Positions 639 through 34,815 of a stretch of DNA of 39,215 nucleotides are shown one piece after another. The stretch is from the IMG/VR virus record IMGVR_UViG_3300031539_000125, positions 1 through 39,215 of that record. One strand, given 5' to 3'. The DNA is from a virus (taxonomy: Duplodnaviria; Caudoviricetes). The translations under genes and the position numbers were made by a program. The number at the start of each line of letters is the position of its first letter. Position 1 is the first letter of the stretch. The notes under the pieces were generated by a model. It was not told the origin of the DNA. It worked only from the letters and a program-made list of their open reading frames with translations, and searched no databases.

Positions 639-1064
639 ATGAAGATTTCAGGTAAAGCTGGGTATGTGATGTATGGCGGCAATACGATTGCCGAACTTAC
701 GGAATGGGCAATAACCGGAGTATCAATGGCGGTTATCAAAAAAGATCCTGCTTTTGCGGATACTGTCGTTGAAAAGATTGCTGATGGAGTTGCGGAACCC
801 GGATCGGTTTCATTCAAAGGGAATTACGATCCGAATGATTCAACCGGTCAGACATTGTTAGCAGCAGCATGTAAGGCGGGGATTGGGATATACAATCTGT
901 ATCTCTACGCAGCCGCTGCTACCTGGTGGCATGTTGGTACTGGTGGCACAATCCTTATTAGCAAAGCAGATGCCGTCACGCTTCCAAGGAGTGGGATGGG
1001 AGTTATCGACTTTGCGGGAGAGGTTGAAGGCGCATGTATGGAGCAGGTAGGTACAGGATCATAA
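639..1064 (+). CDS. Major tail (tube) protein
   Basis: 141 aa, SD GGAGG; N-terminal ISGKAG, a W in the first beta-hairpin, GSVSFKGNYD and C-terminal IDFAGEVEG are typical of siphovirus tube proteins; directly upstream of the chaperone pair. Confidence 0.75.
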   Translation: MKISGKAGYVMYGGNTIAELTEWAITGVSMAVIKKDPAFADTVVEKIADGVAEPGSVSFKGNYDPNDSTGQTLLAAACKAGIGIYNLYLYAAAATWWHVGTGGTILISKADAVTLPRSGMGVIDFAGEVEGACMEQVGTGS

Positions 1065-2277: not shown

Positions 2278-3432
2278 GTGGCGCAATTCTCCGAAGAACA
2301 TAGAAGAAAACTATCTGAGGCAGCGAAACGACGTTGGCAAGATCCTGAGTATTGCAAGGAAATGGCATCCATCGTGATAACGGATGAAGGCAGAAAGGCG
2401 ATATCCGATAGCATGAAAGCTAGATGGCAAGATTCGGAATATAAAAAGAATCATCCGAAAGTTAATCTATCTGAATCAGCAAGGCGTAGTATATCTGAGA
2501 AAGCCAAAAAAAGATGGTCCGATCCTATATTTAAATCACGAGTAACAAAGAAAATAGGCAAAACAGCCAAGGAAGTTTGGGAACGACCTGGATACAAAGA
2601 AAAAATGTCCGAATCTTTAAGGGGATGTTGTGCTGGCGAAAAGAACCATATGTGGGGGAAAAAGCTATCAATAGAAGGTCGCAAAAAGCTAAGTGAGGCA
2701 CATAAGGGAATCCAAGCTGGAGAAAATCATCCAATGTTCGGCAAACATCATTCTAATGAATCAAAACAGAAAATGAGTGAATCCCATAATGATTATCAAT
2801 CTGGGGAAGGGCACCCGATGTTTGGGAGGCATCATTCTGAAGACTCCAAAGCAAAGATAATCGCGGCTCATTTAGGCATCCCATTATCAGAGGAACATAA
2901 AAAGAAAATAGGAAAAGCCAGCAAGAGAGTTTGGGCAACAATAGATGAAGAAAAAAAGAAAGTATGGCGACAGAAAATAGGTGATGGCAACAAGGGAAAA
3001 ATTATTTCTAAAGAATCCAGAGAAAAATTATCCAAAGCACACAAGAAACTTTGGGAAAACCCAGAACACGCAAAAAAATGCCTCGTTTTTAATTCTCCTA
3101 ACAAGTGCGAAACTAAACTTATGAATCTTTTGGATAAAATATATCCTGGCGAATGGAAATTTGTAGGGGACGGACAGGTTGTTATAGACGGGAAATGCCC
3201 TGATTTTATCAATATAAATGGGAGGAAACAGATTATAGAGCTTTACGGCGAAAGATGGCACCAGGATGATGATCCGCAAGACAGGATCAATGTATTCAAA
3301 CCATTTGGATATGATACCTTAATCATCTGGGTGAAAGAATTATCAAACAAAAAAAGGTTAGAGCGCACGCTTGTTACCTTTTGCCAAGGAGATCCTAACT
3401 TTTTGGTATTGGAAAAAGGAGGTTGTCGATAA
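2278..3432 (+). CDS. Free-standing homing endonuclease: NUMOD3 DNA-binding repeats plus C-terminal Vsr/DUF559-like PD-(D/E)XK nuclease
   Basis: Repeats GEKNHMWGKKLS, GENHPMFGKHHS, GEGHPMFGRHHS; C-terminus PNKCE...PDF...IELYGERWH...GYDTLIIW; AT/Lys-rich relative to its neighbours. Confidence 0.8.
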   Translation: MAQFSEEHRRKLSEAAKRRWQDPEYCKEMASIVITDEGRKAISDSMKARWQDSEYKKNHPKVNLSESARRSISEKAKKRWSDPIFKSRVTKKIGKTAKEVWERPGYKEKMSESLRGCCAGEKNHMWGKKLSIEGRKKLSEAHKGIQAGENHPMFGKHHSNESKQKMSESHNDYQSGEGHPMFGRHHSEDSKAKIIAAHLGIPLSEEHKKKIGKASKRVWATIDEEKKKVWRQKIGDGNKGKIISKESREKLSKAHKKLWENPEHAKKCLVFNSPNKCETKLMNLLDKIYPGEWKFVGDGQVVIDGKCPDFININGRKQIIELYGERWHQDDDPQDRINVFKPFGYDTLIIWVKELSNKKRLERTLVTFCQGDPNFLVLEKGGCR

Positions 3433-20445: not shown

Positions 20446-21555
20446 ATGCGGAAAGCTTTCAAATATAGGCTTTTTACAAATAAGACTCAAGAAACCAAAC
20501 TGGAAAAGCTTTTCGATTCCGCCCGGTTTCTTTACAACTGCGCCCTTGAACATCGTATGGTTTACTGGAAGCAATGGCGCAAATCGGTCAATTATTACGA
20601 CCAGGCAAATACGATTAAAGAAATAAGAAGCTTCGATGAAGGCATTGCACAACTTAATTATTCCGCTTCTCAGGATATTCTCAGGCGACTGGATAAATCG
20701 TTCCAGGCTTTCTTTAGGCGATTGAAATTGGGTGACAAACCCGGCTTCCCCCGATTTAAAGGCCGAGACCGCTTTGATTCGATCACCTTCCCGTCCTATG
20801 GTGATGGAATCCGCCTCAAGAACGGCAAGCTCTACATTCAAAATGTCGGCAGTGTCAGAATCAGGGTGCATCGGGATCTTGAAGGAAAGATCAAAACTCT
20901 TGCTATCAAGTGGCAGAACGGGCACTTTTACGCTTGCTTTTCCTGTGATAATGTAATTCCAAAGATTCTTGATCCCTGCACTGATGAAGTCGGCATCGAT
21001 GTCGGTATCAAATCTTTTGCCGTGATGTCCAATGGTGAAGTCATAGATAACCCCAAATACCTGAAACAGTCCGAAGACAAGCTTAAGGATCTTCAGCGCA
21101 AACACTCTGAAAAGCGTACTCGCAAAACCAGAAAGAAGCTTTCCCGCCTGCACGCTAAAGTCGGCAACCAGCGCAAAGACTTTTTGCATAAGCTCAGCCG
21201 GAACATAGTCAACCGGTTCGGCTTTATCTTTGTCGAAGCCCTGAAGCCGAAACAAATGGTTAACGGCAATCACAGAATTTTGAACAAGTATATCAACGAC
21301 GCGGCATGGGCGATGTTCTTTGGCTGTTTGCAATACAAGGCAGAATGGGCCGGTAGAGCATTTGTCAAAGTCAACCCAAAAGGAACAACACAATCCTGCT
21401 CCAACTGTGGTGTGATTGTTCCAAAGGATTTGAGTATTAGAGTCCACGATTGTCCTTGTGGCTTTAAAACTTCCAGGGATCATAATGCCGCCTTAAATAT
21501 TCTCAGGCTGGGACACAGCCTTTGCTTTACGCAAGAAGCCGTCTGCTTCAGCTGA
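20446..21555 (+). CDS. tnpB: RNA-guided endonuclease TnpB
   Basis: PGFPRFK; RuvC residues GIDVG, FVEAL, RDHNAALNI; Zn finger CSNCG...CPCG. Confidence 0.95.
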   Translation: MRKAFKYRLFTNKTQETKLEKLFDSARFLYNCALEHRMVYWKQWRKSVNYYDQANTIKEIRSFDEGIAQLNYSASQDILRRLDKSFQAFFRRLKLGDKPGFPRFKGRDRFDSITFPSYGDGIRLKNGKLYIQNVGSVRIRVHRDLEGKIKTLAIKWQNGHFYACFSCDNVIPKILDPCTDEVGIDVGIKSFAVMSNGEVIDNPKYLKQSEDKLKDLQRKHSEKRTRKTRKKLSRLHAKVGNQRKDFLHKLSRNIVNRFGFIFVEALKPKQMVNGNHRILNKYINDAAWAMFFGCLQYKAEWAGRAFVKVNPKGTTQSCSNCGVIVPKDLSIRVHDCPCGFKTSRDHNAALNILRLGHSLCFTQEAVCFS

Positions 21556-22446: not shown

Positions 22447-22635
22447 TCAATCACTTACCCCTGGTTTGATTGATGCAGCTTTATCCAATACTAAACGAAG
22501 TTCTTTAGGGGAAATTCCCCACATTAAATTAATAAATTCAACGGAAATACCAACGTATTTTTCATTGGATAAATCAAAGTATTTCTTGTACTTTTCCCAT
22601 AATTCTGGGGGACATTTTTGTTTCTGCATAGACAT
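22447..22635 (-). CDS. Hypothetical protein
   Basis: 62 aa, SD GAGGTG; overlaps the integrase 3' end. Confidence 0.45.
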   Translation of the reverse strand: MSMQKQKCPPELWEKYKKYFDLSNEKYVGISVEFINLMWGISPKELRLVLDKAASIKPGVSD

Positions 22636-23656
22636 TTCTCACCTCATCCATCTCTATCTGGAAGTATCTTTCAAACGCCTTATTAGTCGAGTGCATGGTA
22701 GCCCGCTTGATTTGCTCCGGTGAACAATGCTCCCTCAGGGCCCGGGCCGAGCTGTGCCGTGTTCCTCCGTAGAGGTCAACACCCTCGATACCAAGATTTT
22801 TGCAAGCTTTTTTCCAATATCTGTATAGGTGTTTTCGTCCAAAGCCCGATAATTTGCTAGGGTTGACATTAGCACTGACCGCTTTGTTGTGTCGAAAAAA
22901 ATATACATGAGGCAGTGCTCTCGGAAAGGATTTGACCAATTCAATATCTTCAGCCAGTAAAGGAACAGTCTTAAGCTTATTTTCCTTATTATATTTAACA
23001 TTTACCACCCCCAGGGAGAGGTCAAAGTCTCCCTCTTTAATGTTTATAAGCTCCACTGGCCTGATGCTAATGTAAGTCGCCAGCCACTTAATCCCTATCC
23101 AAATCTTCGGGTTGATGTGATATGATATGCGTTTGACTTCCTCTATGATTCGCTGCTGTGTTTCCTTGTCTACTGTGCGCCGCCAACCTAGTTGGTACTT
23201 GACTTTCGGGAACTCGGGAAGCGGAATCTTTCGGTCCCGTTTACAGACCCACGAAAAAAAGGCGTGGATCGTTTCAAGATGCCGTGCTTTCGTAGTTGCA
23301 GATAATCCCCCTGGTAGAGATATAAGGAAATCCTCAATGTCACCGAAGGAAATGCTTTTAATATTCCGCGTTCCAAAGAAATCCATAGCTCTGCCCATGT
23401 GAGTTTTAAGATGACATATATCTCTGAGCCGATCTTTACGAACATCAATCCACTTCCCCGCCAAAGCAGAGAAAGCCAAAGGCTGATCTTTTTGATAATC
23501 TCTGACATCTAGTACCCCCTTGTCATGTTCATAACGTAGCCCGGTTAAGAATCTCTCTGCCTCGTCCCAGCTCTTAAACCGCCGGAATACCCCCGGAAAC
23601 TTGACGAAAAATGGAGCACCCTTGCCACTTTTGTTGACATATACCCTGCCTTTCAT
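22574..23656 (-). CDS. int: Tyrosine integrase
   Basis: Catalytic pattern SIRPVEL (R)...K...YGGTRHS...MHS...ERYF (Y); SAM-like core-binding region; start MKGRVY with SD AAGGGGG. Confidence 0.9.
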   Translation of the reverse strand: MKGRVYVNKSGKGAPFFVKFPGVFRRFKSWDEAERFLTGLRYEHDKGVLDVRDYQKDQPLAFSALAGKWIDVRKDRLRDICHLKTHMGRAMDFFGTRNIKSISFGDIEDFLISLPGGLSATTKARHLETIHAFFSWVCKRDRKIPLPEFPKVKYQLGWRRTVDKETQQRIIEEVKRISYHINPKIWIGIKWLATYISIRPVELINIKEGDFDLSLGVVNVKYNKENKLKTVPLLAEDIELVKSFPRALPHVYFFRHNKAVSANVNPSKLSGFGRKHLYRYWKKACKNLGIEGVDLYGGTRHSSARALREHCSPEQIKRATMHSTNKAFERYFQIEMDEVRNVYAETKMSPRIMGKVQEIL

Positions 23657-23716
23657 ACAGATCCCCCCTTTCTGTTTTTGGGGGAGTGTACTATGGAAGG
23701 GGGAAGGGGTCAACAT

Positions 23717-28009: not shown

Positions 28010-28431
28010 TTTTCACCTCCTAAAAATTAGAATCCTAATCATCGTCATCATCATCACCCCATAGCGGCTTGGCGAAGTACCGGACTATCCAAATCACCGC
28101 AGCAGCAATTACGATTACGAATATGATTTCTAACATTCCCTTTCCCTCTCAACGATAGGGTACTTGGCGGAAATCCTCTTCAGAATGCGTCCGGTTATCA
28201 AACCCGCAAAGATGCTTACAATGAACCAACCCAATATCCAGACTATCCATAATTTCAACGGTGCCATTTCAATCTCCTTCTAGCCGGAGGCCCTACCCCA
28301 AGACCCCCGGCATATACTAGGGTTAGGCTGTTAGTTGACATGCCAACAGGTAAGAGTTAGGGGGGAAAGCTCCATTTGTTCTTGGGATTTAAGGAGCGGC
28401 CCCACACCTTGTTGACCCCCCTAATTTTAGA

Positions 28432-28583
28432 CTTGCCCTTGAACCTTGTCTTTTATTCGTAGCATGTTACTGTGTATCAAGGCCGTTCCTATAGCTACCT
28501 TGACAGTGACCAACATCGGGTGTTGCCCAAGCACCTGTTTCCAGGTCGCACACACGGTTTTTCTTTCCTTTAACAAGGGCAAG
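28432..28583 (-). ncRNA. Multibranch structured RNA domain
   Basis: 10-bp closing stem CTTGCCCTTG/CAAGGGCAAG; inner ACCTG-GAAA-CAGGT GNRA hairpin, TTGGG/CCCGA hairpin and ACTG-TCAAGG/CCTTGA..CAGT stem. Confidence 0.55.
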
Positions 28584-28707
28584 ATAACCTCTACTGGCAA
28601 CCAGGGATTCCCGATTCTCCACCCTGTAATTCGTACCTCCAAAAAGGACGCGTGCTAAATACGAACTAGCAATTTATTAATCGTTCTACGCACTGCCAGC
28701 GATTTTG

Positions 28708-28898
28708 TGCCGGTAGCCAGGATTTGAACCTGGACGTGGTTGTTGGGTCATCTCTTCTTAGTTTCCCAAGCCCCTGTCAACAAGATGCTATATTTGACAC
28801 GAGATATAGTATAGCTTGCTCGTAGTTTAATGTGAATTACAACTGTCCACTTCTATTCACTTTGAATGCGTCTACCAAATCTTTCCGCCACTACCGGC
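28708..28898 (-). ncRNA. tRNA-Leu-like RNA (~191 nt) with the anticodon/variable region replaced by a ~130-nt structured domain
   Basis: GCCGGTAG-TG-GCGGAAAGATTTGGTAGACGC-A ... CGT-CCAGG-TTCAAAT-CCTGG-CTACCGGC-A: 8-bp acceptor, Leu-type D arm, perfect T arm, no encoded CCA. Confidence 0.75.
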
Positions 28899-28899
28899 T

Positions 28900-28995
28900 T
28901 GTCAAAGAACATTGCGGGGAGTGTCTCAACTTCCTCCCTCTTTATCAGGGCTGTCAGCCGTTACTCACTCAGCTCCCCGCATATCAAAGAACATT
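28900..28995 (-). promoter_or_regulatory. Two boxA-like antitermination sites (AATGTTCTTTGA at 28902-28913 and 28984-28995)
   Basis: Exact 12-bp repeat resembling rrn/nut boxA (GYTCTTTRANA), in the sense of the leftward operon. Confidence 0.6.
28914..28980 (-). ncRNA. 67-nt structured module between the two boxA-like sites
   Basis: Closing stem GCGGGGAG/CTCCCCGC; inner GGCT-GAC-AGCC and CCT-GATAAAG-AGG hairpins. Confidence 0.5.
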
Positions 28996-29065
28996 TTTAC
29001 TAAGTGCCCGTCTGCTGCCCTCTGACGGCCTCTTGAGGTCCGTACTAGCGAGGGTCTTGTGCTTC

Positions 29066-29254
29066 TTAGGCTGTACCGCTCTGAGTGACGTTGCGCTCAG
29101 AACAGTTGGAATCCATCTTCTCCACCAGTTCCTTGTAAAACCTAGCCAAAGAATCCCAGCAAGGTGGTAGTGTTCTCATAAATTCAACGAGCCATTTCAA
29201 TTGCTCGGCTTCTTCTTGGGTCTCAATGAATATGTAGGATGATCGAAATGTCAT
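29066..29254 (-). CDS. Hypothetical early protein
   Basis: MTFRSSY start after AAGGAGCCAGCC. Confidence 0.5.
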   Translation of the reverse strand: MTFRSSYIFIETQEEAEQLKWLVEFMRTLPPCWDSLARFYKELVEKMDSNCSERNVTQSGTA

Positions 29255-29267
29255 GGCTGGCTCCTTT

Positions 29268-29435
29268 TTAATCGCTCTCCTGTGGTTCATACTGAAAGCA
29301 TCCCTCCTCATTGTGACATCCCACGCAGGGTTGCTCTATGCCAGCCCAAAGAATTTGCTGAAGCAGATCGGGCGTGAGCATGCAACCCACTCGGATTTTG
29401 CCTTGGGCTTGTAATATGGCTCTCGGGGTGTTCAT
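29268..29435 (-). CDS. Small Cys-containing protein (55 aa, not in ORF track)
   Basis: MNTPRAILQAQGKIRVGC...CVGCHNEEGC; SD AAGGAG. Confidence 0.5.
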   Translation of the reverse strand: MNTPRAILQAQGKIRVGCMLTPDLLQQILWAGIEQPCVGCHNEEGCFQYEPQESD

Positions 29436-29451
29436 GTGAGGCTCCTTGGTT

Positions 29452-29622
29452 TCAATCTGGAATATAATCAGTTACCGGAACCGAATAAACGCCCTCAGTC
29501 AACTGGGCACGGCCAGGCTCAATAATCGCGGTCACATGAGGGTGACAGTTTTTATTCAGCCATTCGATCAAGGGTCGTGCGGCTGTTTCAAAATATTTCT
29601 GCTGCTCGTCGGTTAAAATCAT
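29452..29622 (-). CDS. Small conserved phage protein (56 aa, not in ORF track)
   Basis: MILTDEQQKYFETAARPLIEWLNKNCHPHVTAIIEPGRAQLTEG...; SD AAGGAG. Confidence 0.65.
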   Translation of the reverse strand: MILTDEQQKYFETAARPLIEWLNKNCHPHVTAIIEPGRAQLTEGVYSVPVTDYIPD

Positions 29623-29669
29623 GATGTTCTCCTTTTCATGGATTTTAGGTTTGTGGTCATAGCGGCTCC

Positions 29670-30005
29670 TTATTGCCTATCGTTGTGAATAGCTAACCCT
29701 GCATTAATCGCAGTCTTAACCCCCAGAAGTGGCTTTCTGAGCCACGGAATATAATGGGAAATGATAACAGCCAAAGTCTGTGAACCAACCATACAGCCGG
29801 CGAGGTGAGCTCTTGAGTGATGCTTGCCCAAAATAAGATTCCGTGCAGATCCCCCTCTATCCATGATGCGCTCGGACGTATAATAATCAGCGGCCGCCGC
29901 CAGCGTTGAAGCCACAAGCAATGTCTTCTCTGTTGTCGTCCACGGCCTGGGGCTGTGCGCGCAGGCGGTTAAAGTGAGAATTAAGATGAAAAGGGTTAGT
30001 TTCAT
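29670..30005 (-). CDS. Membrane lipoprotein, first gene of the leftward operon
   Basis: MKLTLFILILTLTA-C lipobox plus further hydrophobic helices; SD AAGGAG. Confidence 0.65.
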   Translation of the reverse strand: MKLTLFILILTLTACAHSPRPWTTTEKTLLVASTLAAAADYYTSERIMDRGGSARNLILGKHHSRAHLAGCMVGSQTLAVIISHYIPWLRKPLLGVKTAINAGLAIHNDRQ

Positions 30006-30035: not shown

Positions 30036-30118
30036 ATTATAAATTCCTTCGTTGGAAAATGTCAAGGAAAATCTTTGGAAAAAAATATCTTGACTTTATT
30101 TCTTTCTGGGATTATCAT
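30036..30118. promoter_or_regulatory. Divergent sigma70 promoters (genetic switch region)
   Basis: Minus: TTGACA(30060-65)-N18-TATAAT(30036-41). Plus: TTGACT(30090-95)-N17-TATCAT(30113-18). Palindrome TTCC-N6-GGAA at 30044-30057. Confidence 0.7.
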
Positions 30119-33205: not shown

Positions 33206-33667
33206 ATGATGAGAATATATCTCGCATCAAGTTGGAAAATGGCTGAATGGGTAAGCACCTGGAAAAGTACTCTTGAACAAGCGGGGCATGAAGTAGATGC
33301 GTTTTGTGATGATTCATCTGGGCGATTTGTATTTCATTTTTCGGAAATAGGTGATCCAGCAGAACTTGATGCTATTAACTTCTTACTAGATCCTCGAAGC
33401 CAAAAAGCGTTTCAGGAAGACAAAAAATGGCTTGATTGGGCCGATGTGTGTTTGCTTATTTTGTCTGCTGGGAAATCGGCACACCTTGAAGCCGGTTATG
33501 CAAAAGGCCAAGGAAAGCTACTTATTATCTGGCAAAACGAATATCCCAAGGGCGAATTTGATGTGATGTATGGATTTGCGGATTTAATCACAGAGAGCCA
33601 TACAGCCGTAATGGAATTTTTGGCTGATAAAGAGAAAGGAATTGTTCGAGTCAATACCGTCAGCTAA
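33206..33667 (+). CDS. Nucleoside 2-deoxyribosyltransferase/hydrolase-like protein
   Basis: RIYLASSW, D...LDWADV, GKSAHLEAGYA.GQGK (catalytic Glu); the last codons are supplied by the tnpB element. Confidence 0.75.
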   Translation: MMRIYLASSWKMAEWVSTWKSTLEQAGHEVDAFCDDSSGRFVFHFSEIGDPAELDAINFLLDPRSQKAFQEDKKWLDWADVCLLILSAGKSAHLEAGYAKGQGKLLIIWQNEYPKGEFDVMYGFADLITESHTAVMEFLADKEKGIVRVNTVS

Positions 33668-34810
33668 AATAGACGGCTTGCAGTTCCAAGAGAAGGAGAA
33701 TTTGGAGAATGAGAGCGGACTGCGATAGGCAAATTGACTATTGCCCTTGTAGCGATGTTAATTGCGCCGTTAATATCGGCATGAATTTGGAAACCACATT
33801 TTTTGCAAAGAAAAACGGCTTGTATCTTTCGGTTGGATTTTGAGACATGATTGCATTGACTACATTCTTTACTTGTATTCCGGGGATCAACCCTGAAAAC
33901 AGGTATGCCCGATTTTTTTGCTTTGTAGACGATGAACTGCCCCAGTTCGTCGAAAGCCCACTTTCCAAATCTTTCCTTTTGCGCTCGATTGACCGTTACC
34001 TTAAAGCCCTTGAGATCTTCCAGCCCAATAGCTCTATTTGTGCCCGCGGCAATAGAAACGATTTGTTTGGAAATGACGTGATTGGTGTTTTTCTTGAATC
34101 TTGTTTCGTGTCCGGAAAATTTCTTCAGGTGGCGCTTGGCAGACTTGCTTCCTTTCGCCTGAAGGGTCTTTTTGATCTTGTTCATTTTTATTCTGACAGC
34201 ATCACACCCTTTGCCGGAAAAAAAATCCCCATCGGACGTGGTGGCGATGTTTTCAATACCAAGATCGACACCAAGAACGCCCCGAGATTTAATCAATTCC
34301 GGTTCGTCAATGTCACACACACAGGCGAGATAAAACTTACCCCTGACCAGCAGGAGGTCCGATTCTCCCTTGCGAAAAGGGAAGAACTTCCGTTGATACT
34401 CGCCCATGACAAAGGGGATTTTAAGACGCCCCTCTGTTGTGCTGATAGAGACAATGTCGTCCTTTTTGGAAAATCTCAAAATGTGGTGATTGTAAGGGTG
34501 TGCCGAATATTTTCTGAATACCCTCTGCGTTTTTTTGTCCAGCTTATACGCATCGGACACCTTTGCAATGCAGCGTATTACCATGTCAGAGACAATGCCA
34601 AACTTGTTTTTAGTATTGCGATAGGCAAGTTTCTGAAGGTCATATTGCCGCAAGACCCCGGCATTCCAACCAACTTCCGACAGATAGTTACAGGCTGCAT
34701 TGGTTCGCTCAAGTGTTTCTCTGAGGATGCTATGCTGTGGTGCATCCGGAAGAAGCTTTATGTTCACCACGATCTTCATAATTCCAAGTATAGGCATTAT
34801 ATTTTCGTTT
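33650..34810 (-). mobile_element. Non-autonomous tnpB-only (IS1341-like) element inserted at TTGAC
   Basis: Right end CAAG-CCGTCTATTTTAGCTGACGG-TA-TTGAC; GTCAA at both 33650-54 and 34811-15; removing it restores the NDT gene end as IVRVND*. Confidence 0.8.
33664..34779 (-). CDS. tnpB: RNA-guided endonuclease TnpB
   Basis: RuvC GVDLG, LEDL, HADINGAINI; CSQC..CKKC; start MKIVVNIKL. Confidence 0.93.
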   Translation of the reverse strand: MKIVVNIKLLPDAPQHSILRETLERTNAACNYLSEVGWNAGVLRQYDLQKLAYRNTKNKFGIVSDMVIRCIAKVSDAYKLDKKTQRVFRKYSAHPYNHHILRFSKKDDIVSISTTEGRLKIPFVMGEYQRKFFPFRKGESDLLLVRGKFYLACVCDIDEPELIKSRGVLGVDLGIENIATTSDGDFFSGKGCDAVRIKMNKIKKTLQAKGSKSAKRHLKKFSGHETRFKKNTNHVISKQIVSIAAGTNRAIGLEDLKGFKVTVNRAQKERFGKWAFDELGQFIVYKAKKSGIPVFRVDPRNTSKECSQCNHVSKSNRKIQAVFLCKKCGFQIHADINGAINIATRAIVNLPIAVRSHSPNSPSLGTASRLF

Positions 34811-34815
34811 GTCAA
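34787..34815 (-). promoter_or_regulatory. Sigma70 promoter for a leaderless tnpB transcript
   Basis: TTGACA-N17-TATACT, 7 nt before the ATG. Confidence 0.7.

Follow-up and report, generated by a model that had tools for sequence, protein, structure and literature searches.

The RNA gene at 28708..28898 (minus strand, 191 nt up to the discriminator A) consists of a tRNA-Leu frame in which the anticodon and variable arms are replaced by a 134-nt insert, referred to below as the cargo. The gene was found in the window, that is, the whole stretch of phage DNA that was analyzed (39,215 nucleotides). On balance it probably encodes a non-decoding phage RNA, for which the tRNA-Leu frame serves as a natural scaffold and in which an exchangeable insert is cut from the early transcript and protected. 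Although the frame is certain, the inner fold of the cargo is plausible and still unsettled.

Phage contig and location of the RNA gene

The gene content of the 39.2-kb contig is that of a temperate tailed phage. Tail genes, an integrase (22574-23716), which marks the phage as temperate, RecT, exonuclease VIII, DnaB, RusA and HNH proteins were recognised, and no head genes were seen in the 39.2-kb contig, which is incomplete. Within a leftward early operon about 750 nt are non-coding, and the RNA gene is located there on the minus strand; the genes around it are small and without a known family. This operon is headed by a perfect sigma-70-type promoter consensus (12/12) at 30036..30065 on the minus strand. 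The same locus was also present in a longer, separately assembled contig (L001) with a 100% identical insert, which excludes a one-off assembly error. A search with exonuclease VIII as a handle returned only this virus, and the protein relatives of exonuclease VIII indicated no host. Two TnpB/IS605 OrfB (Cas12f1-like) genes were observed in the same 39-kb phage, at 20446-21555 on the plus strand and at 33664-34815 on the minus strand. A NUMOD3-repeat homing endonuclease gene (2278-3432, plus strand) lies between the tail completion and tape measure genes.

The tRNA-Leu frame

An 8-bp acceptor stem, a discriminator A, a Leu-type D arm and a flawless T arm had been described in the original prediction, and all four were found in place on the minus strand. 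The 5' strand of the acceptor stem (8 nt, 28891..28898) forms eight of eight Watson-Crick pairs with 28716-28709. The 3' strand, the discriminator A (28708) and an encoded C-A-A occupy 28705..28716, so the CCA end is incompletely encoded, with CAA after the discriminator A. U8-G9 and the D arm (28868..28890, minus strand) show a 3-bp stem, A14, A15, G18G19 and A20a. The D loop is 4 nt longer than the usual Leu form, and the extra nucleotides stand before G18, at the site of a long hairpin insert in the metagenome contig L141. The T arm (28717..28733, minus strand) has a canonical loop and five of five base pairs, and U48 is the last nucleotide of the insert, directly before the T arm. Compared with canonical tRNA-Leu as described in section 12 of PMC9976931, A15-U48, G18G19, A20a and the T-loop partners are all present. 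The pattern running from the D arm to the T loop matched once in the window and in none of 100 shuffles, and the tRNA frame is far beyond chance.

The absence of a normal anticodon arm between the D and T arms was likewise confirmed. A 5-bp stem with a 7-nt loop, U33 and a Leu anticodon is absent from the RNA gene, and the 134-nt insert (28734..28867, minus strand; ending in U48) stands there instead. As there is no anticodon arm and none can be restored by one cut, the RNA gene cannot decode.

The acceptor end also deviates from canonical tRNA-Leu. Instead of a 7-bp stem followed by A73, the RNA gene has 8 bp followed by A, and in a 7-bp register position 73 is C. In this register the top pair can be read as G-1:C73, a histidine signal, but the following bases A and C match the A73-C74 end of the class described below. 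Positions 3-70 are C3-G70 in the 8-bp register and G3-C70 in the 7-bp register, and G3-U70 occurs in neither. The acceptor stem and T stem together form a 13-bp (8/5) branch, as in bacterial tRNA-Sec.

ARAGORN found no ordinary tRNA or tmRNA gene in the 39-kb contig and did not call the tRNA-Leu-framed element, and RF00005 did not match the RNA gene even at an E value of 10. The original prediction had expected partial tRNA hits from tRNA finders and Rfam. ARAGORN and Rfam missed the element outright. A match to a described Rfam family had been named as evidence against the prediction, and none was found within the 39.2-kb window.

Predicted fold of the insert

All inner stems, the GNRA hairpin, the complementary loops and the GTTGT and ACAAC strands that had been named were located where they had been placed; all coordinates below refer to the minus strand. 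The first cargo hairpin (28832..28860) pairs GTGAAT with ATTCAC (28860-28855 with 28837-28832) around a 17-nt loop. A predicted 5-bp stub hairpin at 28867-28855 is a rival to it; under the enforced frame, the pairing probability was about 0.4 for the stub and about 0.5 for the first cargo hairpin. Two adjacent 5-bp hairpins (28776..28823) have the stems ACGAG/CTCGT (28823-28819 with 28803-28799) and GTCAA/TTGAC (28798-28794 with 28780-28776). Their loops are complementary over 6 nt (GCTATA at 28815-28810 and TATAGC at 28792-28787), and a kissing loop is predicted, although the region may alternatively form one plain hairpin with a probability of about 0.25. A hairpin with a GAAA tetraloop of the GNRA type and one G-U pair is predicted at 28757..28770 with a probability of 0.2-0.4. 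The strand before the T arm (28736..28743) is the predicted partner of GTGG (28850-28847) and of GTTGT (28843-28839), the latter pairing with ACAAC (28743-28739). This strand is predicted to form either a pseudoknot or a closing helix.

The whole element folded with a z score of -1.05 relative to shuffles, and 406 of 500 shuffles were at least as stable as the insert. In two post hoc tests, 31 of 5000 shuffles gave a pair of perfect 5-bp hairpins whose loops match over 6 bp, and 90 of 2000 shuffles of the insert gave the pseudoknot topology. A rival nested fold combines the stub hairpin after the D stem with a closing helix of GTGG/CCAC and GTTG/CAAC. Its energy was -43.4 kcal/mol, 2.4 kcal/mol better than the -41.0 kcal/mol of the nested part of the fold proposed earlier.

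The same frame around different cargos

A pattern consisting of the T arm and the acceptor 3' strand matched five metagenome loci, two of which were this virus. In contigs L141 and L138 the same 8-nt acceptor register and the same ending surround an unrelated 92-nt cargo, with one C-A mismatch in the 8-nt register of L141. Both contigs carry a long D-loop hairpin insert where the RNA gene has its 4 extra bases. A third cargo end stands beside the same T arm and acceptor 3' strand in contig L140. As L140 shares 173 nt at 94% with the early genes of the window, it derives from a related phage. In three groundwater runs, five different sequences abut the same T arm on the cargo side, and the same leader and acceptor 5' strand continue into other D-loop inserts. 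One 162-nt groundwater contig contains the 3' end of one frame and, 81 nt later, the 5' end of another. Judged from these sequences, the frame has been kept and the cargo changed within this lineage, which is the clearest sign of modularity in this analysis.

The cargo itself appears to occur only in this virus, as judged from searches of phage, plasmid, viral and metagenome sequences. When 811 nt were compared with 50,697 phage records by BLAST, the only match was a chance one of 30 nt, and no cargo homologues were found among 72,556 plasmid records. Exact or lineage patterns across the viral collection returned only the same virus, and the lineage pattern gave no match in cellular genomes. 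The enlarged-D-loop pattern matched nine loci, namely the RNA gene itself, one other closed frame, one degenerate frame, and tandem tRNAs or chance matches for the remainder. The whole viral collection was scanned for frames with a middle of about 123-149 nt, which yielded 62 loci (51 closed frames, 42 distinct, 31 clusters), and the best non-self match to the cargo among these middles had an E value of 0.95. Because T at position 33 was excluded, about one quarter of the true members would be missed. The contigs of four groundwater runs leave the cargo uncovered, a contig gap not being equivalent to absence.

A class of Leu-type frames

The RNA had been regarded as a unique oddity. This view was not borne out, since the RNA is one member of a widespread class for which RNA1 of phage T5 is an annotated precedent. 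A class scan (Leu D arm, T loop about 120-150 nt away, U at position 33 excluded) covered 28 of the 64 parts of the viral collection and gave 120 loci. In a first set of loci, no anticodon arm was present in 96 of 109 distinct frames. Among the 59 frames with a middle of at least 60 nt, A73 was present in 51 and U48 in 56, neither being required by the broad pattern. As the search patterns demanded a Leu D arm and a T loop, the conservation of these parts is built in.

All loci taken together comprised 92 distinct Leu-type frames with inserts of at least 60 nt. These had 66 different acceptor 5' strands, and 86 of the 92 acceptors were fully paired, where the filter required six of seven pairs. 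A73 was followed by C74 in 66 frames. An acceptor of 8 bp followed by A was found in five, one of which (L199) has a full CCA. Within cargo families the acceptor pairs covary, at six of seven pairs in one family and at seven of seven in another. A boxA-like leader was rare (exact core in 2 of 59 frames, one mismatch in 4) and was too weak to be retained as a class feature. Rfam, applied to 39 other loci, detected only tRNA, tmRNA and one sub-threshold abiF match and no intron family.

The class is mostly viral: in 185,579 cellular genomes a similar pattern matched only 17 times, and several of these matches were ordinary tRNAs in tandem. As the two patterns differ, the comparison is rough. ARAGORN and Rfam miss this RNA and most of the class, which points to a widespread and largely unannotated layer of phage non-coding RNA. 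By one narrow pattern this layer is estimated to extend over about 280 viral contigs overall, against the 17 cellular matches of the similar pattern. A literature search, from which subscription journals and the older T4/T5 work were mostly outside coverage, returned no paper describing this class. Fremin 2023 (PMC10690425) lists 10,006 candidate viral RNAs, and that list could include some of the cargos.

Several individual members were peculiar. One cargo family has varied acceptors, with 8 bp followed by A-CCA in L199 (393-570, plus strand), 7 bp in L204 (392-567, minus strand) and 8 bp in L118 (286-458, minus strand). In L134 (near 801-946, minus strand) and L147 (371-541, plus strand) the acceptor 3' strand is displaced behind a segment that repeats the start of a D arm, and L136 (793-1022, minus strand) has a long D-loop insert. 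On viral contig L196 (393-746, plus strand) a class frame is directly followed by a permuted tmRNA and on viral contig L198 (1-589, minus strand) by a standard tmRNA, both being Rfam matches.

Cargo folding across the class

The 80 cargos of at least 100 nt fell into 52 BLAST clusters. Of 45 representative cargos, 22 are closed by a helix whose end lies 1-4 nt ahead of the T stem. Shuffles gave 8.0 such cases (at most 15 in 200 shuffles), and shifted positions gave 6-11. In 14 of the 52 clusters this closing helix starts inside an early hairpin loop, against 2.83 in shuffles (maximum of 7 in 100 shuffles). The 134-nt cargo is one of these 14 pseudoknot-topology clusters, and five others resemble one remote family. 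A stub hairpin after the D stem was present in 9 of 45 cases, with 7.1 in shuffles, and was therefore rejected as a feature of the class.

In that remote family, with six members that were picked because they showed the long-range helix, this helix was paired in 36 of 36 cells and had double changes at three of six pairs. The enclosing first hairpin in that family was only 67% paired. Support from this family is stronger for the long-range helix than for the pseudoknot geometry, and for the 134-nt cargo it is indirect. Of the GTTGT-ACAAC pseudoknot that had been proposed, the possibility of pairing and the recurrence of the topology in the class have held up, but a nested closing helix competes with it. 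The pseudoknot topology has class-level support; the kissing loop is predicted, and without such support.

Expression

One metatranscriptome run (X5) contained 45% of the sampled words. It yielded the pieces 28339-28850, 28845-28999, 29171-29321, 29353-29503 and 29607-29757, all of which lie between the promoter at 30036-30065 and 28339; the longest spans the non-coding stretch and ends at 28339. There were no differences and no joints, and the insert was present unspliced. The X5 evidence consists of contigs with a depth of 2-4 from one run, in which strand and ends are unreadable and contamination with DNA is possible. As the pieces run across both predicted mature ends, they would represent a precursor, and no processed product was seen among them. 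These data fit transcription with the insert in place.

Flanking elements

The leader TGTTCTTTGA (28902..28911, minus strand) is located 3 nt before the frame and is boxA-like in sequence. A second copy at 28984..28993 (minus strand) precedes an upstream 68-nt element (28913..28980, minus strand) that has its own 8-bp closing stem followed by A. The two copies are the only ones in the window and both are at this locus, whereas shuffles contained 0.12 on average and one at most. The 68-nt element folded with a z score of -4.0, none of 200 shuffles being as stable, and has no canonical T arm. Its CTGATAA heptamer resembles an Ile anticodon loop. In the viral collection the element was found in this virus only. 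Groundwater contigs match it with differing flanks and with loose ends at 28912, 28974 and 28981, and because of these differing flanks it looks like a second mobile RNA cassette.

Downstream of the frame lies a structured non-coding stretch of about 300 nt (28339..28640, minus strand) with long-range helices of 9-10 bp and possible pseudoknots. Its fold z score was -1.34 and it gave no Rfam match. In a hairpin near 28369-28398 both strands were changed in one contig from each of two groundwater runs, and from the sequences these changes appear to keep the pairing. A 17-nt repeat (88%) is common to this stretch and to the GNRA region of the cargo. A G+C-rich hairpin at 28283-28310 (minus strand) immediately precedes the ribosome-binding site of the small gene that follows and has an alternative pairing upstream. 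This hairpin is variable in relatives, and a role in translational control is possible.

Comparison with known RNAs

Through RNA1 of phage T5, RNAs of this kind are already on record as a GenBank label, without a family model. T5 RNA1 (AY543070.1, 30501-30644) is annotated as 'tRNA-like stable RNA with unknown functions', as are RNA2 and RNA3. It shares with the RNA gene a Leu-type D loop, U48, a canonical T arm, ends paired as an acceptor helix and a long folded domain where the anticodon arm belongs, the cargo here being folded by prediction only. In both cases further non-coding RNAs follow, RNAI and RNAIII directly in T5. T5 RNA1 differs in its 6-bp acceptor, in an insert of about 80 nt that retains a separate variable-arm hairpin, and in its position within the full tRNA cluster that a large lytic phage carries. 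The RNA gene, by contrast, has an 8-bp acceptor and a 134-nt insert with a predicted pseudoknot, and it lies in a 39-kb temperate phage contig with no ordinary tRNA gene. No match of the insert to T5 RNA1 was found among the 50,697 phage records at an E value of 1. Rfam does not match T5 RNA1 at the gathering score. Most of the length of T5 RNA1 is retained in 487 phage records, and a comparison of six copies showed paired changes. Species 1 RNA of phage T4 (rnaC, AF158101.6, 70908-71046) is likewise annotated as a small stable RNA, lies in a phage tRNA cluster and has a T arm close to the 3' end, but no Leu-type D arm could be recognised by eye.

Bacterial class II tRNA-Leu (RF00005) has the same acceptor, D and T arms, A14, A15-U48, G18G19, A20a and discriminator A; the RNA gene differs from it by the missing anticodon arm, the 8-bp acceptor and the longer D loop. 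An engineered tRNA scaffold keeps the acceptor, T and D arms and takes up its cargo at the anticodon stem; its processing in E. coli is precise (PMC3753655). Foreign RNA in place of the anticodon stem-loop is common to both. Unlike that construct as described there, the phage RNA is natural and Leu-derived, its variable arm is replaced too, it has a second slot in the D loop, and its processing is predicted.

YrlA Y RNAs, as described in PMC4201824, mimic the D and T arms and the acceptor stem, and one of them is cut by RNase P and gains CCA. They are likewise phage or bacterial non-coding RNAs that imitate tRNA arms, but their strand order is different, their acceptor-like stem is internal and their gene adjoins a Ro60 orthologue, whereas the ends of the RNA gene themselves form the acceptor stem and the tRNA order is normal. 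No Ro60/TROVE family member was found in 46 ORFs searched with PHROGs or 35 ORFs searched with Pfam in this contig, which lacks head genes, and Rfam gave no YrlA match for the RNA gene.

The parallel to tRNA-Sec drawn in the original prediction extends to the 8/5 acceptor-T geometry and no further. According to PMC5389517 and PMC7609411, tRNA-Sec has a UCA anticodon arm and a long D stem with a tetraloop, and allo-tRNAs are 8/4 or 9/3, unlike the RNA gene with its 8/5 branch. The RNA gene lacks both an anticodon arm and UCA, its D arm is of the Leu type with a large loop, and its discriminator is A. A tRNA-Sec identity was rejected, as only the geometry matches and neither a UCA anticodon arm nor a long D stem with a small loop is present. 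What appears from the sequences to be new here is the 8-bp frame, the two slots, the unique cargo and the exchange of cargos around one frame.

Interpretation and alternative explanations

The original prediction of a functional tRNA-shaped RNA is supported, here as a non-decoding RNA, while its tmRNA option fails and its decoy option keeps some probability. Of its proposals, a scaffold matured by RNase P fits best, because compensatory change holds the frame across the class while the inserts differ, even within the exact frame. Transcription of the RNA gene would start at the leftward early promoter, with which the RNA contigs of low depth agree. Nus factors at the boxA-like leaders may aid or shield the transcript (for boxA function see PMC4807359). 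The conserved acceptor, elbow, U48 and A-C end suggest that RNase P cuts at G 28898 and that 3' trimming and CCA addition then lead to a stable RNA of about 194 nt. By analogy with tRNA-Sec, for which a 100-fold lower affinity to EF-Tu is given in PMC7609411, the 8-bp acceptor stem probably weakens the binding of EF-Tu. The folded cargo, closed by a helix beside U48, would be the likely working part. Its position among early genes and the turnover of cargos suggest that it is most probably a protein-binding decoy or aptamer that acts on the host early. The acceptor stem is not constant in length, with 6 bp in T5 RNA1 and both 7 bp (L204) and 8 bp (L199) inside one cargo family, and this drift would suit a processing handle better than a synthetase substrate. 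More tentatively, the RNA may be part of a tRNA-scaffold platform evolved by phages, with two slots, one in the anticodon/variable region and one in the D loop, for a repertoire of unrelated pseudoknotted aptamers exchanged in the manner of anti-defence genes; in this lineage the added eighth pair would end any role in translation, and the cargos would be decoys for host defence or RNA-binding proteins; this possibility we hold with some reserve.

It is less probable, though still worth considering, that the tRNA part is the working end. The RNA would then be a codon-blind and possibly leucylated look-alike that soaks up host proteins which bind or attack tRNA, such as acceptor-end toxins, synthetases and EF-Tu, and the insert would be tolerated bulk that removes the cleavable anticodon loop. 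The class keeps the E. coli leucine identity set (A73 in 73 of 92 frames, A15-U48, G18G19, A20a), and as A73 and U48 belong to this set, leucine charging may be what is selected. According to section 12 of PMC9976931, this set works without the anticodon and variable arms, and E. coli tRNA-Leu lacking both is still charged. Phage tRNAs can also counter a retron defence, as stated in 10.1101/2023.03.15.532788. However, a short filler would suffice for such a look-alike, yet the cargos have conserved, covarying helices. Moreover, 19 of the 92 frames are without A in the 7-bp register, acceptor length varies, the 7-bp register of this copy reads G-1:C73 rather than a leucine signal, and an 8-bp acceptor carries the loss of EF-Tu affinity cited above for tRNA-Sec.

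Rather unlikely is a frame that serves as punctuation, at which RNase P and 3' nucleases free the neighbouring 68-nt and ~300-nt RNAs, the insert being incidental. The position of the frame between two structured non-coding elements is in line with this, as are T5 RNA1 with RNAI and RNAIII directly behind it and the two class frames that are immediately followed by tmRNA genes (L196 and L198). Elsewhere, however, the same frame is followed by protein genes within about 30 nt (L138 and L141), a tRNA-like motif within 120 nt downstream was found in only 9 of 92 frames, and 12 of 92 had a ribosome-binding site and an ATG within 70 nt downstream. Such punctuation also requires no folded 134-nt insert. 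It is compatible with the scaffold reading, and both may act.

We give very little weight to the view that the locus is a tRNA-Leu gene in decay, or the scar of an integration, into which a random sequence was inserted. The insert folds no better than shuffles and has no homologue, and the phage is temperate with an integrase, but the frame flanking the insert is paired perfectly on either side and is found again with other inserts. The acceptor stems of the class covary, and the retention of T5 RNA1 over most of its length in so many phage records also argues against decay.

An intron-containing tRNA-Leu (mini group I or bulge-helix-bulge) that is spliced to a working tRNA is highly improbable. 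The insert sits where tRNA introns sit, and its TATAG motif loosely resembles a group I P7 strand. Against this, no one-deletion product with an anticodon arm was obtained here even at four of five pairs, and in the class one of 59 frames was restorable and none to a Leu anticodon, against 3.1 in shuffles. Rfam gave no intron family match, and the RNA run X5, at its low depth, contained no joint. A tRNA split by an intron removable with one cut was thus refuted, because no single deletion restores an anticodon arm.

Hardly any credence is left for the tmRNA-like hybrid of the original prediction, a miniature with a resume codon in the insert: the insert does contain a pseudoknot-capable hairpin and, after it, an A-rich spacer and an open stretch of 11 codons, but this stretch has no hydrophobic tag end, G3-U70 is absent here and present in only 2 of 92 class frames, the full D stem is retained, and ARAGORN and Rfam find no tmRNA here, though Rfam detects real phage tmRNAs beside two other frames.

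Should the preferred scaffold reading hold, every cargo would be a functional RNA whose borders are already marked, and searching with the frame would be an easy way to reach dozens of new RNA folds and possible counter-defence factors made of RNA. Swaps of frame and cargo in E. coli would then also allow a direct test of the long-known stable RNAs of T5, which are annotated with unknown functions. The contribution of this locus is one distinctive 8-bp frame that encloses several unrelated cargos. Several frames with near-identical acceptor and T arms and with differing inserts of about 35-140 nt were also observed on single viral contigs (L015, L020, L030, L037 and L076).
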